Positions 4,201-63,545 of a DNA stretch of 64,000 nt are shown here, piece after piece. The first letter of the stretch is position 1, and the number at the start of each line of letters is the position of its first letter. The DNA lies in assembly GCA_020056225.1 (NCBI GenBank), contig JAGVIE010000025.1:38995-102994 (forward strand), read 5' to 3'. Both the position numbers and the translations under genes were made by a program. Below the pieces are notes generated by a model. It made no database searches and had not been told where the DNA came from. It saw only the letters and a program-made list of their open reading frames with translations. This stretch comes from Bacteroidota bacterium. Lineage in GTDB: Bacteria > Bacteroidota > Ignavibacteria > UBA10030 > SZUA-254.

Positions 4201-7116
4201 TCAATCCCAGTTTAATTTTACACCGAATAATACTTGACGCGGCGGCTGAAATAAAGTCCGATCAAGCGCCCAAAACTCTGTTTCGTTCCATGATCTGATA
4301 AGTTGTGCGTTATTATTCGAATAATCACCGTACTGAATTACACGTCCTGTGTAATTGTTGATTGAACCGGTTTCAGGGTTCTTACGGTTCAAAAGATTTA
4401 TCACATCGAGCGTTAAGAGTATATTAATCGTCTCGAAAACACGTAATCCCTTATAAATAGAAAGATTAAGCGTAGAATTATATGGACCGGTTTCGCTGTT
4501 GACTTTGCTATTGTACTGAACTTGCGTATATCGCGTTGATAAATATCCGTCGTACGGCGAACCGCTGTTGAAACTCCAGGTAAGAGAGATACCGTAGTTA
4601 TTAATAAACGGCATTCCGAAGAATTCACCTTCATCTCTTGGTCCAACGCGGTAACTTGCAAAAAGATTCGCAGTATGAGTTTGATCCCACGGCATCCGAA
4701 CTTCGCGGGCTAATTGAGTCAACTGTGGATTTATTAAAACATTCAGGTCTGTAGCCGCACGACCTTTTGCAATCAGATATGAATAGCTTAGGGAAACTGA
4801 AAAATTTGTTCCCAACGCCTGATTGACTGAAAGGTCAAAACCACGAGAACTTGCGTAATCGAAGTTTTTATAAAAATTGAAATCACCTCTTTTGACCAGA
4901 GTCGGATAGTCGAATATATCTTTATAATAGGCATGTACTGTAAACGCCATATCATCGGTGAATTGATCTTCGAAACCGGCTTCATAAGCTACAGTGCGTT
5001 GCGGTTTCAGATCGGGATTCCCGATTGTGGCATCTGTATTCAGGGTATAGTTATCTCTAAAATAGCGGGCGCGTTCAGGGAATTGAATGAAGTGTCCGTA
5101 GTTAAAATAAAACACAATCCGATCTGTTACCGGATAACCTATCGAGAGACGTGGACTGTAATATCCGTGAGTGAAGTAATACCAAAATCTCTTTGAATCT
5201 ATCCTGCCATTGGCTCTTTTTGCGCTGTCAGTCTTTCCAGACATATTCCATACCCAATCTGGAGAGGTTTGTCCGGGACTTTTGCCGTCAAGTGTATCAA
5301 TCCACTGATATGCATATTTCCAAGAATCTATATAATCATCATTATAAACTTGAGCACCAAGATCAAGATAATCATAGCGAATACCGATGTGTAAATTCAA
5401 TCCAGCCAGCTCAATATTATCCTGTAGATATAAACCTCCACGGTTAGGCATATTATTCAGGTGATACCTGGTTAATCCATAACCGGGATAATCACCATGT
5501 GACCACTCAGGTTTTGGATCAGGGGGAACAGTACCGTCGTTATGTGTGTAGGTCGGATATCGTATATCCGTGGAATTGATATTTTCAAAATAAACTTCCA
5601 TTCCTGTTTTCAGTAAATGCAAATCATGCACTTGTGAATTATAATCGAACCGTGAAGACCAGACAGTTGTACGCGATGAATACCATCTCTGGCTCGTACC
5701 AAGTTCATTGAAGTAATCACCATTTACATCATATTTGTTTATGTCGGCGGTAGAATATTCGTTGGGTTTTATACCTGCGACATCATTACCGTTTTTGTTC
5801 TCTGATTTTGCAATATACAGCTTAAAGAGAGACTTAGGACTAAAGAAATGCTGCCATGAAAATGTATTTTGGATTGCAATATCAACACCAACAGCAGACG
5901 AATCAGCCCGGTATTTCCAGGTTCTCACAGTGCCATCGTACGAATGGGAGGAAGACAAACTGGCATAATAACCGTAACTAAATTGATCGTCTCCACTAAG
6001 ATCGTATTTCAACTTAGTATTAAAAGTGAATGAATTATCTTGATTGTCACGATACCGGAATCCTGCCGCATTCAAAATGCCGCCTAAAAATCCATTCAAC
6101 TGTATTGTTCTCTCAATAGGATTATAGAATTCATTATGGACATACTGATACCAGCCGTCGCTACGCGTCATATCGGCATTCATAAAGAATGTGAGGGTGC
6201 CCGGTATTTTCATTCCAAGTTCCGGCAACAAATATTTCGACATCGGTTCAGGTCCTCCGAAAGAGAACGAACTATAGGCTTCATTTTGATTACTCTTTCC
6301 AAAGCGATCTGTTCGAAATTGCATGGAGCCTGTATATCTATCTCCGCCCGATTTTGTTGTAATATTTATTATTCCTGATTGAGCATTACCATAGTCCGCA
6401 TCAAAGCCGCTTGTCTGAACGCTGATCGATTGTATCGCGCTTGCAGACACGTTTAATCCGCTTGATCCGCCTACGCCTGTAGATGCACCGGAATAGAGTG
6501 CGTTAAGATCTTTATTGGCAGTCCCGGTTCCCTGGTCTCCGGAGTTTTCTACTACGTTATTCGTAGGAACACCATCGACTAAATATTGTACTTCATTAGC
6601 TCTTCCGCCCCGCAGGAATAAATTCTTACCCTTTTTAACAAATCCTGCCTGGAGCTTTAAAACGTCTTCAACACTCTTGACATTGGGAATGCTCTGGATA
6701 GATTTTTCTCCCACAGTTTTTGTGGAAGATGTTGTAAGTGAATTAACCAATTGCTGATCTGCAGTGATGGTAACCCCTGTCATTTGTACTTCACTTGAAG
6801 TCAATTTAAAATTCAAAGGCGTTGTTTCATCAGCGCCGATTTTTACTTCCTTCACTTCCATTGAAGCATAGCCGATCTGACTTGCCTTAACGGTATACCT
6901 GCCTATAGGTATTCCGATAATGGAATACTTTCCGTCGATATCGGTTACCCCGCCGCGCTGCGTCCCGACTACAATAACGTTCACGCCGAGCATCGCTTCT
7001 CCGGAGACCGCATCTGTAACTTTGCCTACAATTTTACCGGTGTTGCCCGCGAATAGAATTAAATTTACTGTCAGGATTAAAAAGCAAATATATAAACTTC
7101 TAACAAATGTTTTCAT
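4201..7116 (-). CDS. TonB-dependent outer-membrane receptor (SusC-like, N-terminal carboxypeptidase-regulatory-like domain plus plug)
   Basis: Signal peptide. 'GKIVGKVTDAVSGEAMLGVNVIVVGTQRGGVTDIDGKYSI' is a CarbopepD_reg-like domain. 'NLFLRGGRANEVQYLVDGVP' is a TonB plug motif. Length is 971 aa with a C-terminal aromatic beta-barrel ending. Confidence 0.8.
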   Translation of the reverse strand: MKTFVRSLYICFLILTVNLILFAGNTGKIVGKVTDAVSGEAMLGVNVIVVGTQRGGVTDIDGKYSIIGIPIGRYTVKASQIGYASMEVKEVKIGADETTPLNFKLTSSEVQMTGVTITADQQLVNSLTTSSTKTVGEKSIQSIPNVKSVEDVLKLQAGFVKKGKNLFLRGGRANEVQYLVDGVPTNNVVENSGDQGTGTANKDLNALYSGASTGVGGSSGLNVSASAIQSISVQTSGFDADYGNAQSGIINITTKSGGDRYTGSMQFRTDRFGKSNQNEAYSSFSFGGPEPMSKYLLPELGMKIPGTLTFFMNADMTRSDGWYQYVHNEFYNPIERTIQLNGFLGGILNAAGFRYRDNQDNSFTFNTKLKYDLSGDDQFSYGYYASLSSSHSYDGTVRTWKYRADSSAVGVDIAIQNTFSWQHFFSPKSLFKLYIAKSENKNGNDVAGIKPNEYSTADINKYDVNGDYFNELGTSQRWYSSRTTVWSSRFDYNSQVHDLHLLKTGMEVYFENINSTDIRYPTYTHNDGTVPPDPKPEWSHGDYPGYGLTRYHLNNMPNRGGLYLQDNIELAGLNLHIGIRYDYLDLGAQVYNDDYIDSWKYAYQWIDTLDGKSPGQTSPDWVWNMSGKTDSAKRANGRIDSKRFWYYFTHGYYSPRLSIGYPVTDRIVFYFNYGHFIQFPERARYFRDNYTLNTDATIGNPDLKPQRTVAYEAGFEDQFTDDMAFTVHAYYKDIFDYPTLVKRGDFNFYKNFDYASSRGFDLSVNQALGTNFSVSLSYSYLIAKGRAATDLNVLINPQLTQLAREVRMPWDQTHTANLFASYRVGPRDEGEFFGMPFINNYGISLTWSFNSGSPYDGYLSTRYTQVQYNSKVNSETGPYNSTLNLSIYKGLRVFETINILLTLDVINLLNRKNPETGSINNYTGRVIQYGDYSNNNAQLIRSWNETEFWALDRTLFQPPRQVLFGVKLNWD

Positions 7117-35902: not shown

Positions 35903-36004
35903 CGGGATGAATCAAAAATAATATAATTGTTTAAGAGTATTTTAGCGAAGGAATCAATACGTCATCCAACGAGATAATATTTGTCATAATCCCCAGCTCG
36001 CACC

Positions 36005-38721: not shown

Positions 38722-38725
38722 TGTA

Positions 38726-39658: not shown

Positions 39659-39670
39659 GTAAATTCCAAA

Positions 39671-40774: not shown

Positions 40775-41243
40775 CTTCTTTACCTCTTAATATTGTTGTT
40801 ATACGTCTTATAACATAATCTGTATTTCTTATTATATCTGATTCCCAAAATCTTGCAACTTGCAATCCCATTCTTTTTAAAGATTTTGTATTGTTTCTGT
40901 CGTGAATTTTATTATTCCCAATTTTAGCTATCCAATACTTCGAGTTTGTGCCTCGTTGTAAATTTCTTTTTAACGTTCTCCAATACCGGCCATGCCAAAA
41001 GTCACCATCACAAAATACTGCTAACCGTTCAGACGGAAAAACGATATCTGGCTTGCCAGGCAAAGATTTTACATGCCTCTTAAATTTCAATCCCTGCTTG
41101 TTCAATTCGCTCATCAGAAGCAGTTCATGCTTTGTCTTTGTGCTTTTGTTTGCACGTTTTGAAAACGAGGCAATCTCGGATGCAGGTTTCAATCCTTTAT
41201 AAGAAGGGGCACTCTTCTTCCTTATGTTCGATGATCGTGTCAT
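40764..41243 (-). CDS. vsr: Very-short-patch repair endonuclease Vsr
   Basis: 'TKTKHELLLMSELNKQGLKFKRHVKSLPGKPDIVFPSERLAVFCDGDFWHGRYW' shows the canonical Vsr motifs (TKPE..L, LPGKPD, FVDGCFWH). Confidence 0.85.
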   Translation of the reverse strand: MTRSSNIRKKSAPSYKGLKPASEIASFSKRANKSTKTKHELLLMSELNKQGLKFKRHVKSLPGKPDIVFPSERLAVFCDGDFWHGRYWRTLKRNLQRGTNSKYWIAKIGNNKIHDRNNTKSLKRMGLQVARFWESDIIRNTDYVIRRITTILRGKEDGD

Positions 41244-41381
41244 TAGTTACCGATGGAAGATACAAAAAAAAAGAGAATATTGCATACTGATCCCTTGTAA
41301 TATTTACCTTCCAACTCTTTAAATCGTAATGTACAATTTAGCACAAATTTCTTGTCAGCTTCAAACCAACAGTTGCAAAAG

Positions 41382-41525
41382 TCCCCTCTTCCATAGCCCT
41401 AACTTTGGTGAGAGGGGATTTTCCGCCAGAGGCGGATGCGCCTCCGGCGCAAGGGGTGTGTCGCATGAGCCACGAGCTCTGCTTTATAACTACACACCCC
41501 TGTAGTCCCCTCTCAAGAGGGGACT
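41382..41525. repeat. Cluster of five consecutive GC-rich hairpins (REP/MITE-like structured element) between the Vsr operon and the upstream gene
   Basis: TCCCCTCT...AGAGGGGA (41382-41418). CCGCC-aga-GGCGG (41423-41435). GCGCC-tcc-GGCGC (41438-41450). GGGGTGTGT...ACACACCCC (41453-41500). AGTCCCCTCT-caag-AGAGGGGACT (41504-41525). Confidence 0.6.
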
Positions 41526-41526
41526 T

Positions 41527-42411
41527 TTAAATCAGCACCCCATCCTTCCATCCAAGCTTGATAAGCTCAATCTTCTTCATATCGGCTACACCAACTCCAT
41601 GCTTATGCTCTGCTGCTGCAATATGTTTTGGTGACGGGCGTATTGGCAAGTCTCCCTTGAAATACTGCCGCCGTTTTGCCTCGATTATTTTCAGCCCAAC
41701 CGAGTCGAGCGCTACCGGATCCGTCCCAACAAGCAATCCTTTGTATTGCCAGATAAATTCTTTATCAAAATGATGAGGTCCAAGACAATTAAACTGCGGC
41801 GTCATCATCAAAAGAACATTTAACCGCGTTTTACCTTTCACAATCGGAAGGTTGTACAAACTCCCCAGATCAACACACGAGTCGGGATGAAGATCCGACG
41901 GCTCGGGGGCGAACATAATATAATTCTTCAAACAGCCGCTCACACCTGCCCAATGATGCGCCCGCATCGGGCGTGAATTAATCAATGCAGTTGCCTTAAG
42001 GAAGACGGGGTTTTGTAAAACACCTTGGTCATCGATGCTGATATTTGCCTCCTGAACACCGACAGACCTGAGCCGAGATTTCAGTGTGTTCTCAACTTCT
42101 GCCGGCGTGGGTAAATACTTCCACCTGTTCGATTTTATACCAACAATATCCGTCGGCTTGATGATCTGCTTCCATGCCGCTTCGGGGGTTTTCGCATCGA
42201 ACAATTTTATCATCGCTTCATCGAGCATCTGCTCAAAAATCTTCTGATCGATCTTTCCGTCTTTATCTACAATGTTCTGGTGACGAATAAGTATGACCTT
42301 TGATTTCTTTTCCAATGCTTGATTTGCAAATAATGGTACCCCCGCGGTGGCTATGAGTGCGGCAGCGCCTGTCTTGCGAAGAAAATCCCTGCGAGTAATT
42401 ATGTGTGTCAT
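41527..42411 (-). CDS. Tat-signal-bearing hypothetical protein
   Basis: 'RRDFLRKTGAAALIATAGVPLFA' is a twin-arginine signal. A 294-aa ORF. There is a 4-bp overlap with the upstream gene. Confidence 0.5.
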   Translation of the reverse strand: MTHIITRRDFLRKTGAAALIATAGVPLFANQALEKKSKVILIRHQNIVDKDGKIDQKIFEQMLDEAMIKLFDAKTPEAAWKQIIKPTDIVGIKSNRWKYLPTPAEVENTLKSRLRSVGVQEANISIDDQGVLQNPVFLKATALINSRPMRAHHWAGVSGCLKNYIMFAPEPSDLHPDSCVDLGSLYNLPIVKGKTRLNVLLMMTPQFNCLGPHHFDKEFIWQYKGLLVGTDPVALDSVGLKIIEAKRRQYFKGDLPIRPSPKHIAAAEHKHGVGVADMKKIELIKLGWKDGVLI

Positions 42412-45538: not shown

Positions 45539-45576
45539 ACTCTAGTACTTTCGATTGATGATATGAGTTATTAAAT

Positions 45577-47250
45577 TTATTTCACTACTGTTTTCTGAAT
45601 TAATATATCGGCACGCACTAATGCCTCGTTAAGATCACCACATATATTATCTTCACTCATTTGCTCCAGAAGACCCGACTGCTGGATAGCAAACAGAGGT
45701 TGTTTGTGTATTCCGGAAACGATTAAATGTATATGTTGATGTTTGAATTGATTTACTAAATCTTCAAGCGCATGCAAACCACTTGCATCTATAGCCAGGA
45801 GATTACTTGTTTCAAGAATAAGCACTTTCGGTTTCTTTTCGAGAAAGCGCATCGATTCAGTGAACTGATCGACTGCACCGAAGAAAAGCGTTCCGTAAAC
45901 TTCAAAAACCTCCACTCCATCCGGTATGATTCGGGTTGATAGTATCGATTCTTCCTCTTCCCTTTCTTCCTGTAAATCTCTCGTGATCGGATTTACATGG
46001 CTCACTTCCGACATCTTTCTCATAAAAAGCAATGCAGCCAGTACGATACCGACTTCAATCGCTACCGTAAGATCTACGATAATAGTCAATCCAAATGTTA
46101 CAATCATTACAGCCGAATCGCTTTTAGGACTTTTTAGGATCTTACGAAACGAGCGCCACTCACTCATGTTATATGATACCACGATAAGAATTGCCGCGAG
46201 TGTCGATAGCGGAATCAAAGACGCCCACTTACCAAAGAATAACATTATTAAAAACAAAACTATGGCATGAACAATACCAGCGACTGGTGTACGACCTCCG
46301 TTTTTTATATTCGTTGCTGTCCGGGCGATTGCACCTGTTGCCGGAAGTCCGAAAAACAGAGGAGACACGATATTAGCAGCACCCTGAGCAATCAATTCCA
46401 TATTGGATCTATGCCGGGTTCGAATCATACCATCGGCTACAACTGCGGACAATAACGATTCAATCGCACCCAGCAATGCAATCGTGATTGCAGGTGACAC
46501 TAAGCTTGTGATTGTCTGCCATGATACCTGTGGAATTCGAGGCGCGGGGAATGTATTCGGAACACTTCCAAATCTGCTTCCTATAGTTTCAACCGGAATC
46601 TGAAATATTTGAACTGTTGCCGTTGCCAGAATAATTGCAACCAATGCTCCGGGAATCCGGTGAGTAATCCGTGACCATATAACGATCAAGAGAAGAGATG
46701 AAATTCCAACAGCCGCCGTGTTGATATCCAGCGACTGGAAATTACCTGTATACACAACGCACTTCTCAATAAAATCGATCGGAAGATTTTGAATTTTCAA
46801 TCCGAAAAAATCTTTTATCTGCGATGAGAAGATGAGTATCGCAATCCCGCTCGTGAATCCGACGGTAAGAGGATAAGGAATAAATTTTAACAGAGTACCA
46901 AGCCGGGCAAATCCCATAATCATCAGAAATATTCCAGCCATTATGGTAGCAACAACCAGTCCGTCATATCCATAATTTTGAATGATGCCATAGATGATAA
47001 CAATGAACGCGCCGGTTGGACCAGCAATCTGAACACGACTTCCTCCGAAAAACGAGACTATCATGCCGGCAATGATTGCTGTGTATAGACCCTGTTCAGG
47101 TTTAGCACCGGATGCAATAGCAAATGCTATCGCCAGCGGCAATGCAACAATACCGACAATGATACCGGCGGTAAGGTCAGGTATGAATTGTTCTTTGGAA
47201 TAACCCTCTCGAAGAACTGTTACTAATTTGGGTTCGAATCGTTTCTGCAA
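45577..47250 (-). CDS. SulP-family anion transporter with a C-terminal STAS domain
   Basis: Approximately 11 TM helices followed by a cytoplasmic domain 'VLILETSNLLAIDASGLHALEDLVNQF' (STAS-like). Confidence 0.8.
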   Translation of the reverse strand: MQKRFEPKLVTVLREGYSKEQFIPDLTAGIIVGIVALPLAIAFAIASGAKPEQGLYTAIIAGMIVSFFGGSRVQIAGPTGAFIVIIYGIIQNYGYDGLVVATIMAGIFLMIMGFARLGTLLKFIPYPLTVGFTSGIAILIFSSQIKDFFGLKIQNLPIDFIEKCVVYTGNFQSLDINTAAVGISSLLLIVIWSRITHRIPGALVAIILATATVQIFQIPVETIGSRFGSVPNTFPAPRIPQVSWQTITSLVSPAITIALLGAIESLLSAVVADGMIRTRHRSNMELIAQGAANIVSPLFFGLPATGAIARTATNIKNGGRTPVAGIVHAIVLFLIMLFFGKWASLIPLSTLAAILIVVSYNMSEWRSFRKILKSPKSDSAVMIVTFGLTIIVDLTVAIEVGIVLAALLFMRKMSEVSHVNPITRDLQEEREEEESILSTRIIPDGVEVFEVYGTLFFGAVDQFTESMRFLEKKPKVLILETSNLLAIDASGLHALEDLVNQFKHQHIHLIVSGIHKQPLFAIQQSGLLEQMSEDNICGDLNEALVRADILIQKTVVK

Positions 47251-47336
47251 AAAGAAAATACTTTCAAAGATTGATTAAGAGAAATTGAATCACAAATACT
47301 AACAAATAGTTGACATATTAGCAAGTTTATTGGAAC

Positions 47337-53256: not shown

Positions 53257-53359
53257 TATCTTATCTCGTCCTTAATTAGAATCAGGGTTTAATATTAATA
53301 AAATTTAAAGGAAAGTCAAAGATGGAATTGATCCTCCAATAAAATATTTTCAAATCGAA

Positions 53360-54514
53360 TTAAGTATTCCCTCCGATCTTAATCGTGTCATCTCCAAATT
53401 TATCCCGTAGTTTGTCGACTGCTTGAAGAATTCTCTGTTGTTTTTCGGATGAAGGGAATAAGTCGATATCAGCTTGAGACTCATCTGCAAAGTTCGATAA
53501 TCCGATACCGATGAGTCTGATCTGAGTTTTGCCATCATGCGCTTCTTGCAATAACCGCTTAGCCGTATTGAGAATATCCGGATCGTAATTTGTCGGTTGA
53601 ATGGTACACCTGCGTGTTATTGTTTTAAACTTTGAATTCCGCAGTTTCAGTTGAACGGTTCGCGCCTTTAGCGATTTCAGTCTGAGCGTCGAGCACACAC
53701 TTTCCGTGAGCATGAAAAGAATATTTTCCAATTCACCGGTATCGGATATATCTTTCTCAAATGTTTCTTCACGGCTGACGCTTTTTGCTATGTGTTCAGT
53801 TTCTAAAGTTGTTGACCCCTCACCATTCGATGCACGATGAATCCACCCGCCGTGCGCACCAAGAAGTTTGATCAATTCCTTCAAGGAAACAGATTGAAGA
53901 TCAGCAACTGTCTTGAAACCTTTCTGTGTGAGAAACTCTTCTGTTTTTTTCCCTACGCCCGGAATCACACCGATAGGAAGCGGAGCGAGAAATATTTTCT
54001 CAGTGCCGGGTGGGACATAAATTACACCGGCAGGCTTAACTGTATTTGCGGCAATCTTTGCAACCAACTTATTTGACGCAAGTGCAATTGTACACGGAAG
54101 CTGGAATTCCTGCTTGACCATTTTCTGAAGTTTATTCATGTAACCCGGCAGGTTGTTTGAGTAAAGTGATTCGCACCCTGTGAAATCGAGGTACATTTCA
54201 TCGATTGAAGCACGTTCTACAACCGGTGCAACTTCAAGCATCCTTTTATATAATCTATTTGAATATGTCGAATAATCTACGTGATGACCTGATACTACAA
54301 TCAAGTCCGGGCAAAGCCGCAACGCTTGCGCAGTAGGAATCGCCGAACGGACACCGTATTTTCTTGCTTCGTAAGATGCAGAAGCAACTACACCACGCCC
54401 TCTTGCACTTCCACCGACAACGACAGGTTTACCATCGAGAGATGGATCCTTAATGCGTTCCACAGAGACAAAGAAACAATCGAGATCGATATGAGCGATG
54501 AATATCTGTTGCAT
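53360..54514 (-). CDS. dinB: DNA polymerase IV (Y-family)
   Basis: 'IAHIDLDCFFVSVE', 'SYEARKYGVRSAIP' and 'SIDEMYLDFTG' are Y-family polymerase catalytic motifs. Confidence 0.9.
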   Translation of the reverse strand: MQQIFIAHIDLDCFFVSVERIKDPSLDGKPVVVGGSARGRGVVASASYEARKYGVRSAIPTAQALRLCPDLIVVSGHHVDYSTYSNRLYKRMLEVAPVVERASIDEMYLDFTGCESLYSNNLPGYMNKLQKMVKQEFQLPCTIALASNKLVAKIAANTVKPAGVIYVPPGTEKIFLAPLPIGVIPGVGKKTEEFLTQKGFKTVADLQSVSLKELIKLLGAHGGWIHRASNGEGSTTLETEHIAKSVSREETFEKDISDTGELENILFMLTESVCSTLRLKSLKARTVQLKLRNSKFKTITRRCTIQPTNYDPDILNTAKRLLQEAHDGKTQIRLIGIGLSNFADESQADIDLFPSSEKQQRILQAVDKLRDKFGDDTIKIGGNT

Positions 54515-54740
54515 ATTTGAAAGGTAAGAATATTCTTACTCAGAATCATTTAGAAACAATTCTGATTTCTTAAATTATTGTTCAGGATAAGATTCTCATT
54601 TCTCCTCTTATGAAACACCAAAATAGCTAATTGAACTCTTTCATCTAATCTGATGTTCAGTAAAATAGAGCAATCGCAAAGCTCCAACAAAACAGCAAGC
54701 ATTACACAATAATAAAACATATCTAAGAAAGGAATTAGTT

Positions 54741-55235
54741 ATGGCAACATCAGAGAAAAATCAATTCATTGAAGTCTGGGAACGAGAGTTCCATACAACT
54801 CTGAAAGTTCTCAAGTCATATCCTGAGAACAAACTCGATCTCAAGCCGCACGAGAAATCTCGCTCGGCAAAAGAACTTGCCTGGACATTGAACAACGAAG
54901 AAAAGGTTCTCATAAACGGAGCGATCTCAGGTAAATTCGATTTTAATAACACTCCACCGCCGCCATCGACCTTACAGGAAATTCTTTCGATCTATGAGCG
55001 CAATCATAAAGAGAATGTAGAAAAAGTAAAGAAGATGAGCGATCAGGATATGAACAAGACCGTTCAGTTCATGTCGGGACCAAACCAAATGGCTGACATG
55101 CGTACAGCAGACGTTCTTTGGACAGGAGTGATGGATACTATTCACCATCGCGGACAGTTCTCGGTTTATTTGAGAATGGCTGGAGGTAAAGTTCCGTCTA
55201 TCTATGGTCCATCGGCGGATGAACCGTGGATGTGA
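54741..55235 (+). CDS. DinB_2/YfiT-like four-helix-bundle protein (damage-inducible protein DinB superfamily)
   Basis: 164 aa. The C-terminal 'MDTIHHRGQFSVYLRMAGGKVPSIYGP' is typical of the DinB_2 family. Confidence 0.65.
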   Translation: MATSEKNQFIEVWEREFHTTLKVLKSYPENKLDLKPHEKSRSAKELAWTLNNEEKVLINGAISGKFDFNNTPPPPSTLQEILSIYERNHKENVEKVKKMSDQDMNKTVQFMSGPNQMADMRTADVLWTGVMDTIHHRGQFSVYLRMAGGKVPSIYGPSADEPWM

Positions 55236-56290: not shown

Positions 56291-56364
56291 AGAGATATAG
56301 TTGAGGTTATGAGGTAACAGAATTATGATTTATCATATGCCTTGCATGTAAATAAGTTATTGAC

Positions 56365-56631
56365 TCATGGGAAATGACGGTAAATCTCTTTGCGATGAAG
56401 AACTCTTTCAAATATAACAGTATCGGCAACTATTGATAGACCAATGCGATAATCACCGAAGCGTACTTTATAATATCCGGGATAACCTGTCATCGCCTCC
56501 ACCTTACCTGACTCGAATATTGTCTTCAGATTTGGAACAGTTTCAAATACAAATTCTTCGATTGGAGTTCTATGATGCGAGGGGATATCGGCGAGTTCTT
56601 TTAGAAAACGTTTTCGGTACTCCGTTTTCAC
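56365..56631 (-). CDS. Type II toxin-antitoxin toxin, RelE/ParE family
   Basis: 88 aa. 'YKVRFGDYRIGLSIVADTVIFERVLHRKEIY' matches the RelE/ParE C-terminal signature. Confidence 0.7.
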   Translation of the reverse strand: MKTEYRKRFLKELADIPSHHRTPIEEFVFETVPNLKTIFESGKVEAMTGYPGYYKVRFGDYRIGLSIVADTVIFERVLHRKEIYRHFP

Positions 56632-56831
56632 GGTTTCTTTTCCATTGTTTTATAGGCGGCTTTTGCCTCTGCAAGTACAAATTTCTCATCTGCTTCACCT
56701 TCCTTGATCAACTTGAGCAAGCCATAATTCTCCAACACCTCTTCAATTTTTTCAAACGTACCGATATCTAGCTGGACTGCGATTTTATTATTCTTCTCAT
56801 CGACAATATATTTTCTTGGAATGTTAAGCAT
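56628..56831 (-). CDS. Putative cognate antitoxin
   Basis: A 67-aa acidic protein immediately upstream of the toxin. A 4-bp ATGA-type overlap. Confidence 0.5.
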   Translation of the reverse strand: MLNIPRKYIVDEKNNKIAVQLDIGTFEKIEEVLENYGLLKLIKEGEADEKFVLAEAKAAYKTMEKKP

Positions 56832-56889
56832 GGATATTCTCCTTTCACTTTAATATAACAAAGGGAGGGATTAACGACAAATTACACCT

Positions 56890-59800
56890 TCATAAATCTT
56901 TCGGATTCCGAAAGTCAATACCTATCACTTCAAGACCTTCAACTTCATTACGAGATTCAACAATTGCCTTCGCTCGTGCTTTAAGGATTTCAATCACTTG
57001 TTCAAAACTATGCTCTTGATCGTTCTTACATGATTTTTCCTTATTGTGACCAATCATTCCAATAAAGTAAATTCCATAACGGGAGTTATGTGCCCGTAAA
57101 TATTGTCCTACTAATTGATTTTCAAGACGTTCTATTAGTGTACTCAAAGTCCAACGCTCCGCCCATTTAATTTCGATAGATACAGGATCGGTATTTGGGT
57201 TTTCAATTCGTAGATCCGGCCTGTCTTGTTGGTCGATTTCCTCCTCTTGCGGTACAGTGTAACGATTGTTGTTACGGTCCACTAACTTTCTTTGCAACCA
57301 TCGTCTAAGTATAGGTTCTGGATCACCAATACGAACTTCTTCTCTTAAGCTATTATCTGCTTTTTCTACATCATATTTAATCCCTTGCAAGCGTTTAATT
57401 ACGAGTTTAAATAGATCACGATCTGTCTTTGGGTCTATCTCATGATCCTTTTGGAAAGAACGTACGTCCTCTGGTTTCCATGGTTCTAAATCTGCTTGAG
57501 TTTCTTCTCTATTCTCAATCAGATGCAATATGAAATCTCGTCTAGCAACCATAGCTGGTTCGGAGAGTAGATTCTTCAATTCAATCGTTGCTTGCGGATC
57601 AGTGCTATTTGCAAGCCGATCAAGTAATCTACCACGAAAATCCTGTACATCGTGTCTTGCTGTTGGTGTGAATACACCGGGACCATAAGACTCATCATCC
57701 TCAGGTCGTATATAACGAAATACCAAAACTATGAATCTCCGCAATAAAACCGGATGTTCGTAATCTGGTTTATGTGATACTGGTGCTTTATCAAAACGAT
57801 CACCTTTTAGCACAGCGCATAAGTTTAGCATCAGATCAACTGCTTTATCATAATTATTTAATAACTCATTCAAAAAATTTATTGCATGAGCAGCATCGGT
57901 TTGTAACCATACCGTTAGCCACAACAAGAATATTTTGCTCCCAACGGGATATCGCTTAATACGTTCCGAAGCAATTATTCCGAGTTCATTTGATGGTGCA
58001 ATATTTCGTCTCATTAGAAGTGAAAGACCCAAGCGAAGTATTGATGGATTAGGTGGATCATCATTCTTCAGCAATTCGATTATAGATTTTTCCACTAGTG
58101 GTACCAGGTCATCACCTTGCCATACTAAATCTTGCAATACTTCATTAACGTCTTTTCGATCTGCAGTAAATTGCCATTCTCCTCTGATGCACTCAACAAG
58201 AACTTCGCGAACTGCGTCAGGATGAAAACAGGCAAGATCTTTAAACCATGTGGCAAATCCATTTAACTCATTTACCGCATACCTTGAAGCTCGATAAGCA
58301 TCTTCATAATTCATTTTTGCCAGATTTATTTCTTTGTCTGCTAAAGTTGCTTGTATGCCCGCAAGACCAGCTATTATCCCATAAGTTCTATTTCCATTAA
58401 CGCTTTCATGCGGCAAGTTCGGTTTATATGTACGCCAGATATGTTTACATCCTTTTCTTGTTGCCCAAGTAATAAGTCTACCCCGTTTCTTTGTAAGATC
58501 GTCCCATGTGCTTGGAGTATAGCGTTGAATATTTTTCTCATCAGCTTCACGACAAAGATGAGAAAGCCAGGCTGCGTTTTTACCTGTTATTAATTGTTTT
58601 AAATGAATGATTAGTTTGTACTGATCATTGAAATATGTCCAACTTTGTTTAAGTTTTCTCCATTTGTCAATCCACCACCACTTATCTCCGAGCTTCCAGT
58701 GTATATTTCTGTACCACAGTCGTTTTAACCACAATGTAGGACCATTGATCTGTCTGTGATAAAATGACTTTAGATGCGTATCTCGAACGATAGCTTTCTT
58801 GATTTTGTTGCGGTCAAGATCTTTTTGTTTTGATCTTCGAATTAGGTCAGACGCTAGACATAATACAAGTTCACGATCTCTAATACTATCCATCCCCTGA
58901 ATATCCTGCACCATCCAATCGATATCGTCTTGCAGGGGTTTAATAACTTCGTAGTAATCATATAGCGCAACCAATGTCCTAGGTTCGTCTTTTTCTTGCT
59001 GACGTCGTTCTTTAACGCGATTCCAAAAGTAATGTCTTCTTAATGAAGGATGTCTGCCCGTTGCAATATTCAGTTCATCAAACTTGGATGTATGCAGTTT
59101 ACTATATCGATGGATCTGTCCCAGAAAGGATATTGCAGTGACAGTTATAGCTATCTCTTCTTCGCTTAGTTCTGTTATTGAAAACAATTTCCGCAGTACT
59201 ACGGGGATTACTTCACCTAACCAAGAGAATTGAGCAGAGACATTTGTCTCTTTACTATCATGGAGAATATATGGAGGGGTTCGTCCCAAATCTAATAGTG
59301 CTAAAAGTAATTCATGTGCTTGATCTGGTTTCAATACTGATTCAAAGTGAGATGATAATTGATAATTTAGATCAACACTGCTATCAGGAACTGGTTCTGT
59401 TTTCCTTAATAAATCGATCAACCCACAAGAATCTATTACATCTGGATAAAGCGCTTCACATATTTCACCACAAAGGTAATTAGGAATATTGGGAAGTTGA
59501 TTTGCAATCTGAACAAGCTTTTGTCGGCTTTCCTTATCACCAGCATCTCTAATTGTCGCTGCTGCGTATATCCTTATATCTAAAGATTCATCTGGAGTCG
59601 CGATTAATTCTAGAGCAATACTAAGACACTCTTTTAGGCGTCCATAGCGTACTAATTGGAGTATTTCTTTTCTTATATCAGCCGAAATATCTCGATTGCG
59701 TATAATTGTAATAGCATCTTCTGCGAGTGCTGGGTCTGCAATACGTTTTAAGGATTCAGGTGAAGATTCAATCCATACTCGTTCCCTTCCCTTGAAGCGT

Positions 59801-61167
59801 TCTACAATTGCTGCAAGAATTTTTCTTTTATATTCGATTGGTAACCGACTTGGATCACCATATTGCAAATGAATATCAGGGGCAGCTTCTAGAACCCAAT
59901 TTCTAATATCTTCATTCCACGGCTCACTGCCACAGCAAAGCCAAGCCGCAATTGGTGCAAGTCCCTTTCGGATTATCTTTTTTCCCCAACTATGCTCGAA
60001 AAGTAGATTATTTATCTCCATCACCGGACATCGATTATACAACCGATCTTCCAACCATTGCGCTGTAAGATACTCTGCAATACGTCGATGGTGAAAACGA
60101 ATGTGTCCATAACTTGCGCTGTCAAAAAGAGGGCGCATTAGTAATGAACTTGATTGTTGTTTGCTCCAATTTTCTTGTAAACACTTATTAGCATCTAGTG
60201 CCAAGCTATCCGAATTATCCTCCGGTACTTTGAAGTTAAATTGGCGACAAAACATTGTGGCTGCAGCGAGTGATTTGACTCCCTCATATAATTGGTCGGA
60301 AGACAGCGAGTCATTATCACGTTTCGGTAATTGTAGTTTAAAACGAACATCATGTTCTATGAGTTCACTAAGTGAACCAAACCGTTTTTGTTCCTTCCAA
60401 AATTTAAGTAAGTCGACTACATCTCCTGGTCTTCTGGTGAACTCCCATGCTTGATGCTCTTCTAAGGCAGAAAGAAATTTATCAGCATCTGAAATATTCT
60501 TTGCTCGAGTGAAAGCTTCCACCCGAGTTTTATCTAGAGGTTCCATTTGGACAACAATGATTCCCTCTCGTTTATCAGATTGATCTCCTTGCGCAATTGG
60601 AGTGCTGGCTTTTTCCTTTGAGGTGGCTAGTAGAGGAAAAAGGCTCGAAACCTCATATAGATCATTCTTTGGTTGCCATTCACTTATCCGTGAACTTAAA
60701 ATAATCCGTGTTCGCCCAATATTAATAGTGTCAAGATCGTTGTGGAATCGGTTCAATGCCGTATAGAAATCGGTAAGCTTTCGAAATTTTGTTTCATCGA
60801 CAGAGTCAAGAAAGAAAAATGCTTCGTGACTACTATGTAACCATTTTTGAAAGTAATTGTAATCATCTCTGCCAATAGCATCAACCAAAGACAGATCTAT
60901 TAATCTATCTAGCTGAATAAAGAAAGCAAATCGTCTTTCGTCTCTCATTAAGTCAACGCGACGCTTAAATTCCCACGTCTTGCCACTAAAAGGTTCTCCG
61001 AGAACAACGACAAATCTATTATTGAAAAGATCATCCCACCCAAGTCCTAGTTCACGTCCTAATAATTCGCGAGTATAACTGAAAAGAGCCATATCTTCTG
61101 GCTGCTCTCCCTCATTTAGCGGAATGAAACGACGATTCAGTTCAATGAATTCTGTGGATGCAAACAT
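56890..61167 (-). CDS. 1425-aa STAND/NACHT-type NTPase with a long alpha-helical repeat region and a C-terminal RecB-like PD-(D/E)xK nuclease-fold domain; candidate NLR-like defence protein
   Basis: Walker A 'VVVLGEPFSGKTWEF' at aa 52-66. NACHT-style Walker B 'AFFFLDSVDE'. C-terminal motifs 'RPDLRIE' (D), 'VSIEIKW' (ExK) and 'QLVGQY' (QxxxY). Confidence 0.7.
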   Translation of the reverse strand: MFASTEFIELNRRFIPLNEGEQPEDMALFSYTRELLGRELGLGWDDLFNNRFVVVLGEPFSGKTWEFKRRVDLMRDERRFAFFIQLDRLIDLSLVDAIGRDDYNYFQKWLHSSHEAFFFLDSVDETKFRKLTDFYTALNRFHNDLDTINIGRTRIILSSRISEWQPKNDLYEVSSLFPLLATSKEKASTPIAQGDQSDKREGIIVVQMEPLDKTRVEAFTRAKNISDADKFLSALEEHQAWEFTRRPGDVVDLLKFWKEQKRFGSLSELIEHDVRFKLQLPKRDNDSLSSDQLYEGVKSLAAATMFCRQFNFKVPEDNSDSLALDANKCLQENWSKQQSSSLLMRPLFDSASYGHIRFHHRRIAEYLTAQWLEDRLYNRCPVMEINNLLFEHSWGKKIIRKGLAPIAAWLCCGSEPWNEDIRNWVLEAAPDIHLQYGDPSRLPIEYKRKILAAIVERFKGRERVWIESSPESLKRIADPALAEDAITIIRNRDISADIRKEILQLVRYGRLKECLSIALELIATPDESLDIRIYAAATIRDAGDKESRQKLVQIANQLPNIPNYLCGEICEALYPDVIDSCGLIDLLRKTEPVPDSSVDLNYQLSSHFESVLKPDQAHELLLALLDLGRTPPYILHDSKETNVSAQFSWLGEVIPVVLRKLFSITELSEEEIAITVTAISFLGQIHRYSKLHTSKFDELNIATGRHPSLRRHYFWNRVKERRQQEKDEPRTLVALYDYYEVIKPLQDDIDWMVQDIQGMDSIRDRELVLCLASDLIRRSKQKDLDRNKIKKAIVRDTHLKSFYHRQINGPTLWLKRLWYRNIHWKLGDKWWWIDKWRKLKQSWTYFNDQYKLIIHLKQLITGKNAAWLSHLCREADEKNIQRYTPSTWDDLTKKRGRLITWATRKGCKHIWRTYKPNLPHESVNGNRTYGIIAGLAGIQATLADKEINLAKMNYEDAYRASRYAVNELNGFATWFKDLACFHPDAVREVLVECIRGEWQFTADRKDVNEVLQDLVWQGDDLVPLVEKSIIELLKNDDPPNPSILRLGLSLLMRRNIAPSNELGIIASERIKRYPVGSKIFLLWLTVWLQTDAAHAINFLNELLNNYDKAVDLMLNLCAVLKGDRFDKAPVSHKPDYEHPVLLRRFIVLVFRYIRPEDDESYGPGVFTPTARHDVQDFRGRLLDRLANSTDPQATIELKNLLSEPAMVARRDFILHLIENREETQADLEPWKPEDVRSFQKDHEIDPKTDRDLFKLVIKRLQGIKYDVEKADNSLREEVRIGDPEPILRRWLQRKLVDRNNNRYTVPQEEEIDQQDRPDLRIENPNTDPVSIEIKWAERWTLSTLIERLENQLVGQYLRAHNSRYGIYFIGMIGHNKEKSCKNDQEHSFEQVIEILKARAKAIVESRNEVEGLEVIGIDFRNPKDL

Positions 61168-61271
61168 TTCTAATAATAAAATAAATTTTACTTGATGGTA
61201 AGAATCTACACAAATTTCTTTTCACCTTCAACAACCGCACCTCAGAGATACCACAACCCACCCAACCCGTC

Positions 61272-61320
61272 ATGCTGACACCTGTCCTGAGCGAAGTCGA
61301 AGGATGCTCTTGGTCAGCAT
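61272..61320. repeat. Palindromic element ATGCTGAC-...GTCCTGAGCGAAGTCGAAGGATG...-GTCAGCAT carrying the 14-mer TGAGCGAAGTCGAA
   Basis: Outer 8-bp inverted repeat atgctgac/gtcagcat. An inner gtcct/aggat stem around the same 14-nt core found at 55313-55326. Confidence 0.6.
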
Positions 61321-61478
61321 CTATACCAAGCCAGCCCCGTTCTGATCCCGACCAATCCCGCTCATCGAGCGGGACGGGATGACGTGTATCTTTTTTTAAA
61401 ATTACATCCAACCCAGTTCCGGCTTCCCTTTCATTGCCAGATGATAAAATCTATGAGCGGTGGTTCACTGCCCAACTC

Positions 61479-61514
61479 GTTTAAAATAAACACCCCGTCC
61501 TATGAGGAACGGGG
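61479..61514 (-). terminator. Candidate rho-independent terminator for the S9 peptidase gene
   Basis: The minus-strand RNA hairpin CCCCGU...ACGGGG (plus-strand 61493-61514) is followed by UGUUUAUUUUAAA. Confidence 0.4.
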
Positions 61515-61652
61515 CATCATCTATTAAAATATTATGGAGATTTTACATAATTAAATTAATGTCATGGTTAACCTCGTGAGCTTGCCGAACGACGAACAAT
61601 GACATTTCACTTACTTTTCACGCTTCGACAAGCTCAGCGTGACAGGTTTTTT

Positions 61653-63545
61653 TTATTGAAGCAAATGTTTTTCTAAAAATTTCTCCATCGCTTCGTAGAA
61701 GTCGAACCGGTTTTCTTCGTTGCGGAATCCGTGACCTTCGTTCTCTTTCACGAGGTAAGGCACATCGATACCTTTTTTCTTCAGAGCATCAACAATCTGG
61801 TTCGACTCGTTGATATTGACGCGGGGATCTTTTGCACCCTGCGCAACTAAAAGCGGTGCCTTGATGTTATCAACGTGAAATACCGGCGATGCGGAGGCAA
61901 GCAACGTGCTGTCTTTCTGCATATCTCCAACCATCTCGTAGAACATATCGAGGTATGGTTTCCAATACGGTGGAATTGTTCTCATAAATGTAAACAAATT
62001 CGATACGCCGACATAATCAACTCCGCAGGCGTACAGATCGGGTGTGAATGTAAGTCCTGCAAGCGTGGCATAACCGCCGTAACTTCCGCCGTAAATCGCT
62101 ACTCGTTTCGGGTCGGCAATCCCCTGACTGATGAGCCACTTAACGCCGTCGGAAATATCATCCTGCATAGATTTTCCCCACTGTTTGAAAGAAATTTCCC
62201 AGAACTTTTTTCCATAACCGGTGGAGCCGCGGAAATTCATTTGCAAAACTGCATACCCGCGGTTTGCAAGGAATTGTACCTCGGCGTTGAACCGCCACAT
62301 GTCGCGCGCCCACGGTCCGCCATGCGGATTAACAATTACAGGAAGATATTTTGCTTCCTTACCTTTCGGCAATGTGAGATAACCATGGATCGTTAATCCG
62401 TCGCGGGTTTTGTATTCAATCGGTTTCATCTCAGCAAGATCTTTTTCTTCCAACCAGGGGGAACGGTCGGCAAGCTTTGTCAGCTTATCCGATTTCTTTT
62501 CATAAAGATAAAACGAGCCGCGTGTTCTGTCGCTTGATGTTGACACTGTAAATACTTCCTCGTCCTTGTCGCTGGAGACAACTGTTACCTCATACCCGGG
62601 GAGTTGCTTTTCAAGCTTTGCGTATAGGTCTTCAGTTTCTTTGTCGAGGAATTTGTGTTCAACCTTCCATGTTATGTAACCTATTTCGGTCAACACTTTC
62701 CTCAATCGTGAATAATCCATCCCGTTAACATCCACATCGTCGCGCTCATATATTACACTAACTTCTTTCTTGTTGGCAATGTCGTATTCAACAATTGCGG
62801 TTTTATCTCTGCCAAGATTTGAGACAGCATAAATATTTTTGTTATCGAACGTGAAGAATAGAGGTCCAAACGATTCCTTAAAATTCGTAGTCATAACATT
62901 TTGGAATGTATCCTTCTCGGTATCGCGATAAAGTATACTCGTGTTGACGCCATCGGTTGTCGTAGCAATCCTAATATTACCGGCATGATCGGTAACCCAG
63001 CCTGTTATGTTACCGGGGTTTTGAGCAACCATTGTGAGTTCACCCGTACCTGTATTGAGCCGATATACATCAAATATCTCACGAACACGTTTATTCATTC
63101 CGACGAGGACATCTGTGGGATGATCTCTTAGATCGTCAATTATTAGAACTCGAACACTGTCGAATGGCGTAAGGTCTTTCATCTCTTTACCTTCACGATC
63201 AACGGCAAAGAGATGGAAGTTTTCATCACCGCCGAAATCTTTTACAAATAATAACCGGTCGCTGCCCTTCCAAAAATATCCTGATAGATCACGATCGGTT
63301 ACCGATGTAATTCGTTTTGATTCGCCGCCCGAAATCGGCTGGACAAATATGTTCATGCGTCTCTCGTACGGTTCAACATGCGCAACGTATTTACCATCAA
63401 GCGATAAGGTAAATGCAGACTTTTCCGGATTCTTGAAAAAATCACGCATCGGGATTTTTTTCGGAGCTTGCGCCAGAGATGAGACAGAGAGAAATAAAAT
63501 ACACATCATCAGAATGATGGTAGGAAAACGGTTTGTTAATTTCAT
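61653..63545 (-). CDS. S9-family serine peptidase (prolyl oligopeptidase/dipeptidyl-peptidase type) with an N-terminal beta-propeller
   Basis: Signal peptide. 'IYGGSYGGYATLAG' is the GxSxGG nucleophile. 'EGHGF' is the catalytic His region. 630 aa. Confidence 0.85.
   Translation of the reverse strand: MKLTNRFPTIILMMCILFLSVSSLAQAPKKIPMRDFFKNPEKSAFTLSLDGKYVAHVEPYERRMNIFVQPISGGESKRITSVTDRDLSGYFWKGSDRLLFVKDFGGDENFHLFAVDREGKEMKDLTPFDSVRVLIIDDLRDHPTDVLVGMNKRVREIFDVYRLNTGTGELTMVAQNPGNITGWVTDHAGNIRIATTTDGVNTSILYRDTEKDTFQNVMTTNFKESFGPLFFTFDNKNIYAVSNLGRDKTAIVEYDIANKKEVSVIYERDDVDVNGMDYSRLRKVLTEIGYITWKVEHKFLDKETEDLYAKLEKQLPGYEVTVVSSDKDEEVFTVSTSSDRTRGSFYLYEKKSDKLTKLADRSPWLEEKDLAEMKPIEYKTRDGLTIHGYLTLPKGKEAKYLPVIVNPHGGPWARDMWRFNAEVQFLANRGYAVLQMNFRGSTGYGKKFWEISFKQWGKSMQDDISDGVKWLISQGIADPKRVAIYGGSYGGYATLAGLTFTPDLYACGVDYVGVSNLFTFMRTIPPYWKPYLDMFYEMVGDMQKDSTLLASASPVFHVDNIKAPLLVAQGAKDPRVNINESNQIVDALKKKGIDVPYLVKENEGHGFRNEENRFDFYEAMEKFLEKHLLQ

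Follow-up and report, generated by a model that had tools for sequence, protein, structure and literature searches.

The largest gene of the region is a diverged, intact member of a published anti-phage family; it is real, correctly read and not new. Its product of 1425 aa is probably a pattern-recognition receptor of the STAND/NLR type that acts against phages on its own, belonging to the Avs10 family (Erebus/Hypnos/bNACHT64; HyoA/EruA in NCBIfam). The initial annotation had given the span 56365-61167 of the window (the whole stretch of 64,000 nt that was analysed). The 1425-aa ORF is present there, but 56365 is the end of a ParE gene and the span contains three genes (Table 1). The strings reported from the translation were all found in the ORF, both the N-terminal GEPFSGKT and FFFLDSVDE (aa 117-125) and the C-terminal RPDLRIE, SIEIKW and QLVGQY.

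Table 1. Features of the large gene, its cassette and a neighbouring polymerase gene (positions in the window; residue numbers are those of the 1425-aa protein)
Feature	Position	Strand	Remarks
Y-family polymerase	53360..54514	-	IMS, E=2.2e-45
Variable cassette, 5.3 kb (HyoA-like gene, relB, parE)	56339..61659		Between conserved S9 peptidase and rhodanese genes
ParE/RelE-family toxin, 88 aa	56365..56631	-	GTG start; PF05016, E=8.6e-10
RelB-like antitoxin, 67 aa	56628..56831	-	PF18506, E=9.5e-23
Full ORF, 1425 aa + stop	56890..61167	-	Probable single-gene NLR-like anti-phage protein, Avs10 / Hypnos (HyoA)-like family
PD-(D/E)xK nuclease domain	56893..57312	-	About aa 1286-1425; presumed effector
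Catalytic block	57100..57216	-	D1318 (RPDLRIE), E1332-x-K1334 (IEIKW), Q1351...Y1356 (QLVGQY)
Alpha-helical repeat (HEAT/TPR-like) region	57313..59967	-	About aa 401-1285; presumed sensor
NACHT-type STAND NTPase + winged-helix module	59968..61032	-	About aa 46-400
RFHHR motif	60085..60099	-	aa 357-361, winged-helix region; conserved motif
Walker B with NACHT signature D[GAS]hDE	60793..60816	-	FFLDSVDE, aa 118-125
Walker A	60976..60999	-	GEPFSGKT, aa 57-64; fits GxxxxGK[ST]
Promoter-like site 5′ of the large ORF	61173..61201	-	Weak consensus match only

The gene is currently labelled "hypothetical protein." An ORF of 89 aa with a TTG start (61142..61411, minus strand), which overlaps the start of the large gene, was treated as spurious. 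Promoter-like sites are not more numerous in the region than in shuffled sequence, in a scan that covered promoters other than those of the Bacteroidota type.

Family membership and domain architecture

The NCBIfam model NF058534.1 (antiphage_HyoA) aligns with the protein in one collinear stretch, residues 10-1420 on profile positions 1-1428 of 1430, at 1120.7 bits, which is under the curated equivalog cutoff of 1200 bits; the EruA model (NF058535) gives 168 bits. The closest relatives score 1091.7 (P0002) and 1137.5 bits (P0013), a Paraburkholderia protein 1206.6 bits, and those of Edaphovirga, Shewanella and E. coli 1420-1700 bits. These scores thus place the protein in a sister clade just outside the curated HyoA boundary. 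The same model matches all 30 of 30 diverse homologs. The alignment of the protein with a bona fide HyoA of E. coli (WP_205854001.1; 1419.5 bits) falls into two long stretches, aa 6-733 and aa 888-1376, with 24-25% identity and every motif in register. The bNACHT64 counterpart from E. coli aligns end to end with the family profile of our protein (868.7 bits), and the C-terminus of this bNACHT64-like protein matches the nuclease-domain profile (E=6e-37). A total of 372 homologs was found, and most of the 120 listed are approximately 1430 aa in length.

The names Erebus and Hypnos reportedly go back to van den Berg et al. 2024 (Cell Host Microbe). Judging by the names, HyoA would correspond to Hypnos and EruA to Erebus. 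Both are DefenseFinder subtypes, and Bdi1 is cited as a phage-encoded Hypnos inhibitor. According to Lee et al. (Nature 2026, PMC13581612), Avs10 is Erebus/Hypnos/bNACHT64; it recognises the major capsid protein of the phage and brings about cell death by means of an effector domain, and each of these STAND families consists of a single protein with a single phage-protein trigger. The link between a HyoA-type protein and Avs10 is reached through bNACHT64 as it appears in that text. Kibby et al. include bNACHT64 in NACHT clade 20, enter it as a one-gene operon, and describe effectors at the extreme C-terminus of some bacterial NACHT proteins; the table of their preprint gives no phage sensitivity for bNACHT64 or bNACHT28.

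The order of domains, NTPase first and nuclease last, had been regarded as unusual in the initial annotation, but this architecture is already known, the family of the protein being clade 20 of Kibby et al., HyoA/EruA of NCBIfam and Avs10 of Lee et al. The view that a STAND/NACHT NTPase with a C-terminal nuclease serves in defence is congruent with the published anti-phage activity of the family. With Avs10 the protein shares the length class (about 1425-1470 aa), the domain order (NACHT first, then the helical region, with PD-(D/E)xK at the C-terminus), end-to-end homology, identical catalytic motifs, a single-gene organization, a sporadic distribution, and occurrence in islands. It differs in sequence, sharing approximately 24% identity with the HyoA and bNACHT64-like proteins of E. 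coli used for comparison, and in its host, an uncultured Ignavibacteriales-type bacterium. Conservation is highest at the two enzymatic ends of the protein, with a variable stretch between them.

The N-terminal module carries the D[GAS]hDE form of Walker B by which Kibby et al., following Koonin and Aravind 2000, define NACHT proteins. Among 41 homologs of 35-50% identity, G57, S61, G62 and K63 of Walker A and D121, S122, V123, D124 and E125 of Walker B are invariant. In a set of 30 homologs reaching down to 23% identity E58, G62, K63, D121, D124 and E125 are invariant, and the invariance of G57 and S61 is lost. The predicted fold of the NTPase and winged-helix region is closest to known NACHT proteins; two fold searches put it in the NACHT/STAND class suggested by the initial annotation, with the NACHT modules of animal NLRs on top. 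The full protein had no match in either Pfam or PADLOC (2023), the gathering threshold of Pfam NACHT (PF05729) not being reached and no Pfam family matching at E<=0.1, and PDB sequence and profile searches returned nothing credible. The NACHT model is weak in the family as a whole, matching 5 of 30 members (best E=5e-4); it is simply too distant from the clade that holds our protein. Within the RFHHR motif, which sits at a strand/helix junction of the predicted structure (strand 355-358, helix 361-377), R357, F358, H359 and R361 are invariant and H360 is at least 90% conserved in the 41 homologs. By analogy with the work of Kibby et al., this motif may be the equivalent of the autoinhibitory histidine of NLRs (NLRC4 H443).

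The predicted fold of the C-terminal domain has an alpha-beta-beta-beta-alpha-beta core in which strand 2 bears the D and strand 3 the (D/E)xK. D1318, E1332, K1334, Q1351 and Y1356 are invariant in the 41 homologs and also in the 30 homologs down to 23% identity. E1284 and E1308, upstream of the catalytic block, are invariant as well. Fold and invariant E...D...ExK residues thus agree with the PD-(D/E)xK nuclease proposed for this end of the protein. The further proposal of a RecB-like QxxxY motif did not hold: the spacing is QxxxxY, with Q and Y five positions apart, and no RecB-family match was found. An assignment to the RecB/Cas4/AddB type was rejected on this spacing and on the closest similarity lying elsewhere. 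The core fold, with D...ExK on strands 2 and 3, is common to PD-(D/E)xK effector and toxin nucleases such as CdiA-CT EC869, BamHI/OkrAI/BstYI, Can2/Card1, NucC and HamA. None of the Pfam PD-(D/E)xK families matched the domain significantly, the best being PDDEXK_15 (E=0.049, in 2 of 23 members). Among its best 150 database matches the domain is almost always the C-terminal end of family proteins or of apparent fragments of them. We infer that it corresponds to the "effector domain" of Avs10, for which the available text of Lee et al. gives neither identity nor place.

Between the two enzymatic ends, the parts that were modelled (aa 400-620 and 1100-1285) are alpha-helical, and aa 400-620 matches HEAT-like repeat proteins. 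The earlier description of some 900 aa of helical repeats is borne out for these two parts and extends beyond them.

The variable cassette and its RelB/ParE pair

Blastn comparison with the close relative L169 (GCA_964520905.1) shows homology stopping at 61660 and restarting at 56338. The backbone is approximately 90% identical in DNA and the tyrosyl-tRNA synthetase (TyrRS) 96% identical, and the large gene is absent at the same site. The slot instead holds a different cassette of 3.1 kb, the first gene of which matches the PADLOC candidate PDC-S05 (E=3e-31). The gene is likewise absent from two further relatives (L088 and L089), whose contigs end before the far cassette boundary. The GC content of the cassette (0.391) is within the lowest 1.7% of 5.3-kb windows, and the GC3 of the HyoA-like gene is 0.28, as opposed to 0.36-0.48 in backbone genes. 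The different cassette in the slot of the relative and the unusually low GC content suggest that the cassette was acquired horizontally and that the site is variable. No tRNA gene was detected within the window.

The Y-family polymerase reported close by is present. The defence-island setting did not materialize within the window, where the remaining neighbours have metabolic or housekeeping roles (rhodanese, squalene-synthase-like genes, S9 peptidase, TyrRS) and where PADLOC found no match for the three cassette genes. Homologs elsewhere adjoin type I R-M genes, SIR2, and gene pairs of PARIS-like and Gabija type. There are 366 confirmed matches among 185,579 species-representative genomes, a rare and patchy distribution over many phyla; 61 plasmid records carry homologs, 30 of these plasmids being predicted conjugative. 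IMG/VR contained no confirmed relatives of the protein, and homologs occurred in just two records deposited under the name "Acinetobacter phage MD-2021a."

The RelE/ParE toxin and small antitoxin reported directly beside the large gene are confirmed, immediately downstream of it, by matches to both family profiles. The antitoxin gene comes first and the start of parE overlaps the stop of relB by 4 nt (GTGA), so that order, overlap and profiles all identify the pair as a type II toxin-antitoxin module. Whether it forms one three-gene system with the large protein, acting as a second abortive-infection arm, as a regulator or as an addiction module for retention of the defence gene, has to be weighed. 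The three genes share one strand and one variable cassette that ends 27 nt past the parE stop, and the gap of 58 nt between the large ORF and relB has no detected terminator-like site; yet relB is preceded by a well-formed promoter-like site of its own and by an AAAGGAG ribosome-binding site. Toxin-antitoxin genes are somewhat enriched within 900 nt of homologs (44 loci: HigB twice, RelE, PIN_3, DUF433/DUF5615 and DUF4160/DUF2442) as compared with a distance of 3-3.9 kb (55 loci: one PIN/Rv0623-like pair); a HigBA pair adjoins one homolog (P0016), and the bNACHT64 locus has a RelE/ParE pair nearby. These adjacent modules nevertheless come from different, unrelated families, most loci have none, and toxin-antitoxin modules accumulate in mobile and defence islands in general. 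All-against-all clustering of the flanking ORFs of 78 loci revealed no conserved partner gene, the best cluster comprising 6 of the 78 with scattered positions, and the idea of a conserved linkage to toxin-antitoxin modules was not upheld. The recurrence of rhodanese and DinB near homologs was dismissed as coincidental, the organisms being unrelated and the positions different. Finally, the one-gene operon of bNACHT64 (Kibby et al.) and the single protein with a single trigger in Lee et al. (PMC13581612) also speak against a composite system, which we regard as improbable. RelB/ParE is most probably an independent type II toxin-antitoxin operon within the cassette of the large gene and not a system component. 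In a weaker variant, the co-travelling pair might stabilise or back up the defence gene in the cassette.

Two other explanations concern the large protein itself. It could be a conserved housekeeping or regulatory STAND ATPase of the MalT-type kind, unrelated to defence, as its neighbours in the window and the lack of a PADLOC (2023) match might suggest. Such a gene is not expected to be missing from the same slot in close relatives; its absence at the L169 site contradicts a syntenic ATPase kept in all relatives. With the foreign composition of the gene, its patchy occurrence and presence on conjugative plasmids, the defence-island setting of homologs and the curated antiphage name of the family, this role is extremely unlikely. 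Very unlikely, if a little less so, is an NTP-dependent restriction-type nuclease that recognises DNA, e.g. modified phage DNA, with the PD-(D/E)xK domain as sensor and cutter and the NTPase as switch, much as in McrBC or Type ISP enzymes. Fold searches identify the NTPase as NACHT/STAND, neither a McrB-type GTPase nor a helicase-type motor, and the helical region of approximately 900 aa is typical of protein-binding sensors. Moreover, the trigger of Avs10 in Lee et al. (PMC13581612) is a protein, the major capsid protein.

Relation to other systems and proposed mode of action

As an Avs10-type receptor the protein resembles bNACHT25 and its kin (Kibby et al.), which also combine a NACHT switch with a DNase effector of restriction-endonuclease fold and a repeat or other sensor, DNA cleavage being predicted on activation. 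In these proteins, however, the effector is Mrr-like and N-terminal, i.e. at the opposite end, and the sensor is another one; bNACHT25 is reported to sense DnaJ perturbation. Avs1-4 (AVAST; Gao et al. 2022) likewise differ in having N-terminal effectors and in sensing terminase or portal, and their structures (8dgf, 8dgc) ranked below the NACHT modules of animal NLRs in both fold searches. The animal NLRs (NLRC4/NAIP, NLRP3, NLRP1, NOD2) give the best structural matches to the NTPase and winged-helix region and have the D[GAS]hDE Walker B in common with it, but their signalling runs through N-terminal adaptor domains (CARD, PYD), their sensors are LRRs, and they have no fused nuclease.

By analogy with the literature on the family, the protein would rest as an autoinhibited monomer. 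Upon infection the helical region would wrap around a conserved phage protein, namely the HK97-fold major capsid protein in those enterobacterial members that have been characterised. Binding would free the autoinhibition, and the NACHT module would drive an ATP-dependent oligomerisation that gathers the C-terminal nuclease domains and so activates them. DNA would then be degraded, and the infected cell would die or the infection would abort. Trigger, oligomerisation, DNA target and cell death are all carried over from published relatives in this scheme. The specificity for the capsid protein may not transfer to our protein, because it scores below the HyoA cutoff and is approximately 24% identical to the E. 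coli proteins compared, and because the accessible text of Lee et al. does not name the Avs10 homologs tested. The environmental clade to which it belongs includes Nitrospirota, Planctomycetota, Desulfobacterota and Verrucomicrobiota besides the Ignavibacteriales genome described here. There is a small but real chance that this clade senses not the HK97 major capsid protein but another phage protein, and that its C-terminal domain forms a separate nuclease family with a substrate preference of its own.

The finding matters little beyond annotation: the gene product can be named an anti-phage NACHT protein of the Avs10/Hypnos-like kind that ends in a PD-(D/E)xK nuclease. That nuclease carries no annotation in Pfam or in the domain table of Kibby et al., and is supported here by its fold, its invariant catalytic residues and its near-exclusive C-terminal placement. 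The curated HyoA cutoff of NCBIfam leaves out a large sister clade of environmental origin, which aligns over its whole length, and the locus shows clearly how, in two close Ignavibacteriales genomes, one cassette has been replaced by another at a chromosomal hotspot.

The variable cassette and its surroundings

The 1425-aa NACHT-first, nuclease-last protein, a RelB-like antitoxin and a ParE/RelE toxin are encoded by co-oriented genes in a 5.3-kb cassette (56339..61659) between S9 peptidase and rhodanese genes. The initial annotation had given the large protein a span of 56365-61167; the genes are present, but 56365 marks where the ParE gene ends, and this span therefore covers all three. The ParE GTG start overlaps the TGA stop of relB, and the 58-nt gap between the large ORF and relB holds a well-formed promoter-like site (TTGTCG, 17 nt, TG-n-TATATT) together with the relB ribosome-binding site, AAAGGAG.

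Features of the window
Feature	Position	Strand	Evidence
Large ORF, 1425 aa, uninterrupted	56890..61167	-	ORF call
RelB-like antitoxin	56628..56831	-	PF18506, E=9.5e-23
ParE/RelE toxin	56365..56631	-	PF05016, E=8.6e-10
Y-family polymerase (Pol IV)	53360..54514	-	IMS domains, E=2.2e-45
DinB-family protein	54741..55235	divergent from Pol IV	
Fluoride riboswitch	33344-33410	+	Rfam RF01734, 48.3 bits (gathering 34), E=2.5e-10
Large ORFs without Pfam match	1754-4174, 7131-8996, 11999-14260, 14288-16576, 20901-22472, 24712-26319	-	

The host is a bacterium of Ignavibacteriales type, to judge from its TyrRS: most of the best named matches (76-79% identity) bear the label Ignavibacteriales or Ignavibacteriae. 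A relative, GCA_964520905.1 (locus L169), has a 96% identical TyrRS and a backbone of ~90% DNA identity, and shares the window's gene order (S9 peptidase ... rhodanese, two SQS genes, amine oxidase, TyrRS). Homology with the window breaks off at 61660 and returns at 56338, 27 nt past the ParE stop; between its S9 peptidase and rhodanese genes L169 carries another, 3.1-kb four-gene cassette (L169:1647-4744, contig CAZFQL010000006.1; also in L168). The first gene of the latter encodes an ORF6N-domain protein matching the PADLOC candidate PDC-S05 (E=3e-31), the remaining proteins (237, 193 and 276 aa) have no PADLOC match and no Pfam family on record, and the whole may be an uncharacterised defence cassette. 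Two other relatives, whose S9 peptidases are 92% and 89% identical, have a lipocalin-like gene or other sequence after the peptidase, and no homologue of the large gene. The cassette is accessory; its GC content of 0.391 places it among the 1.7% of 5.3-kb windows with the lowest values, and GC3 is 0.28 for the large ORF versus 0.36-0.48 for backbone genes. Its neighbours in the window are ordinary chromosomal genes, and the defence-island setting first proposed here gives way to a variable slot, not a multi-system island. After the S9 peptidase gene comes a strong intrinsic-terminator-like hairpin (61489-61518, minus strand; 12-bp stem with 6 GC pairs, T-run), inside the last stretch conserved with L088 and L089 (loci of other relatives) and just before that homology ends at 61418.

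The Y-family polymerase, which had been named as part of the same neighbourhood, is also accessory but separate from the defence cassette, since together with the DinB-family gene it forms a second insertion (53338-55202) absent from L169, where rhodanese adjoins the first SQS gene. L169 also lacks a sulfate permease/STAS gene (45577..47250; difference region 45539-47293), and has only ~1.2 kb, with an alpha/beta-hydrolase gene, against the 5.6 kb of window 35981-41542; near the breakpoint of this region, L089 shows a 76-nt match (79% identity) to 41360-41435. The fluoride riboswitch is the sole Rfam match within the window. Six large minus-strand ORFs (523-806 aa) have no Pfam match at E<=1e-5; one of these adjoins a TonB-dependent receptor gene with a CarboxypepD_reg domain (4201..7116).

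Domains and family membership

Every peptide quoted in the initial annotation is found in the large ORF, and the invariance of the residues shows that these are not chance motifs. Among 41 homologues of 35-50% identity, Walker A G57, S61, G62 and K63, Walker B D121, S122, V123, D124 and E125, and the C-terminal D1318, E1332, K1334, Q1351 and Y1356 are invariant; down to 23% identity (30 sequences) all of them except G57, S61, S122 and V123 remain so. Conservation is highest in the nuclease core (aa 1301-1350) and second in the NTPase/winged-helix region, the middle (aa 641-900) being most variable, a pattern consistent with a putative sensor that links two enzymatic ends.

The AlphaFold2 model of aa 1-620 (pLDDT 86.2, pTM 0.84) has animal NACHT proteins as its best structural matches in Foldseek (NAIP/NLRC4, E=8.6e-9), with Avs4 at about 1e-4 and generic AAA+ proteins ranking behind. 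The Walker B signature D[GAS]hDE, which sets NACHT apart from other STAND clades (Kibby et al., bioRxiv 10.1101/2022.07.19.500537), is matched by D-S-V-D-E in the window protein; fold and signature together uphold the original NACHT assignment. The window protein escapes the Pfam NACHT model, which picks up only 5 of 30 family members, and these weakly.

The C-terminal domain had been described as RecB-like with a QxxxY motif. This assignment was rejected, because five positions separate the invariant Q from the invariant Y (QLVGQY), and because profile comparison of the isolated domain with Pfam and PDB gave nothing significant (the best was PDDEXK_15, E=0.049, for 2 of 23 members). When 1.84 billion cluster representatives were searched exhaustively with phmmer, 1177 proteins had the domain at the E<=1e-3 level, and 535 at the stricter E<=1e-10. 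In the best 150 of the 1177 it nearly always occupies the extreme C-terminus of ~1400-1500-aa proteins, or of apparent 5'-truncated fragments thereof, so that it looks largely specific to this family. It lies off the C-terminal end or near the N-terminus in P0258 (228 aa), P0371 (238 aa), P0319 (351 aa) and P0353 (386 aa), database proteins that could be stand-alone or differently fused versions, or gene-calling artefacts.

The window protein belongs to the family of NCBIfam NF058534.1, "NACHT domain-containing antiphage protein HyoA", which it matches collinearly once (residues 10-1420 versus profile 1-1428/1430); EruA, the sister model, matches more weakly (168 bits). All 30 diverse homologues match the HyoA model. 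Scores descend from Edaphovirga (1699.8 bits), Shewanella (1604.7 bits), E. coli WP_205854001.1 (1419.5 bits) and Paraburkholderia (1206.6 bits) through P0013, a closest relative (1137.5 bits), the window protein (1120.7 bits, below the curated cutoff of 1200 bits) and P0002, another closest relative (1091.7 bits), to Balneola (882 bits), and thus place the window protein in a sister clade just beyond the curated equivalog boundary. E. coli HyoA aligns with it in two long blocks (aa 6-733 and 888-1376; 24-25% identity) with all motifs in register.

The group is NACHT clade 20 of Kibby et al., annotated plain "NACHT"; two of its E. coli proteins were tested, bNACHT28 (615-aa split form) and bNACHT64 (1468 aa), and their table lists no phages for either. 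The bNACHT64 locus was found in E. coli DETEC-P881, where the counterpart (L170:9424-13830, NZ_CP116100.1; RefSeq label still "hypothetical protein") is matched along its full length by the profile of the window protein's family (868.7 bits) and bears the same nuclease domain (E=6e-37). In bNACHT28 (WP_157702471), a split member listed in a two-gene operon (Kibby et al., Table S2), the first gene stops after the NACHT/winged-helix part. At several homologue loci (L005, L009, L022, L033, L061) the gene is broken into two or three ORFs, which may be frameshifts, pseudogenes or assembly errors.

According to Lee et al. (Nature 2026, PMC13581612), "Avs10 (Erebus/Hypnos/bNACHT64) sensed MCPs", and the Avs7, Avs8 and Avs10 sensors bind the HK97 capsid-protein A-domain at the penton/hexon-forming interface; for Erebus and Hypnos they cite van den Berg et al. 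2024. DefenseFinder subtypes include both, and a paper on phage Banzai cites a phage inhibitor of Hypnos, Bdi1. From the names and the homology chain we infer that HyoA is Hypnos and EruA is Erebus. The NACHT-first, effector-last order is a minority arrangement that is already described, and Kibby et al. propose that the repeats return the C-terminal effector to its usual spatial position. The initial annotation thus read the sequence correctly and rightly inferred the kind of protein; its claim of novelty for the reversed order fails, because the architecture is that of a catalogued family with a published trigger.

Neighbourhoods and distribution of the family

Clustering of all flanking ORFs of 78 homologue loci gave no conserved neighbour, the best cluster covering 6 of 78 loci at scattered positions. 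When 150 small ORFs lying no more than 900 nt from homologues (44 loci) were scanned against Pfam, HigB came up twice, along with RelE, PIN_3, DUF433/DUF5615, DUF4160/DUF2442 and HTH antitoxins; a matched control set of 150 ORFs at a distance of 3-3.9 kb (55 loci) gave one PIN/Rv0623-like pair. The immediate vicinity of homologues is thus modestly enriched in toxin-antitoxin modules, as is expected for mobile islands. The families are unrelated, never the same partner and absent at most loci, and the conserved linkage that the initial annotation had raised is not borne out by these surveys. Homologues are found beside type I R-M, AAA_15/21 ATPase, PLD and SNF2 genes, and elsewhere beside SNF2/DUF1156 genes and an AAA_15/21 and DUF4435 pair, the PARIS-type architecture. 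An E. coli homologue in a CP4-like element lies beside a BrxD-like ATPase, a DEAD-box helicase and SIR2. The DETEC-P881 counterpart occupies a tRNA-Asn island; upstream of it are two integrases and a RelE/ParE-HTH pair, and directly downstream an "ATP-dependent nuclease" and UvrD-helicase pair, the Gabija gene pair.

Nitrospira, Planctomycetaceae, Syntrophaceae and Binatia supply the nearest named homologues (44-46% identity), and identity is just 28-30% for the copies in Bacteroidota and Balneolaceae, a ranking that disagrees with the host lineage. In 185,579 species-representative genomes the family has at least 366 confirmed matches, a minimum figure since detection relied on two peptide patterns. 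Plasmid records with a family member number 61, of which 30 are predicted to be conjugative; in IMG/VR the family was not confirmed.

Proposed mode of action

The best-supported reading is a single-protein receptor, and as regards family and general mechanism we regard it as probable. The present analysis itself establishes the folds, the invariance of the catalytic residues, the family and the accessory status of the gene. By analogy with Lee et al. and the Avs and bNACHT literature, the helical region would bind a conserved phage protein, which in characterised members is the capsid protein; the NACHT module would then drive ATP-dependent oligomerisation, and the clustered C-terminal PD-(D/E)xK domains would cut DNA, so that infection aborts. 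That the window protein, a distant member, senses a capsid protein in particular has about an even chance of being correct.
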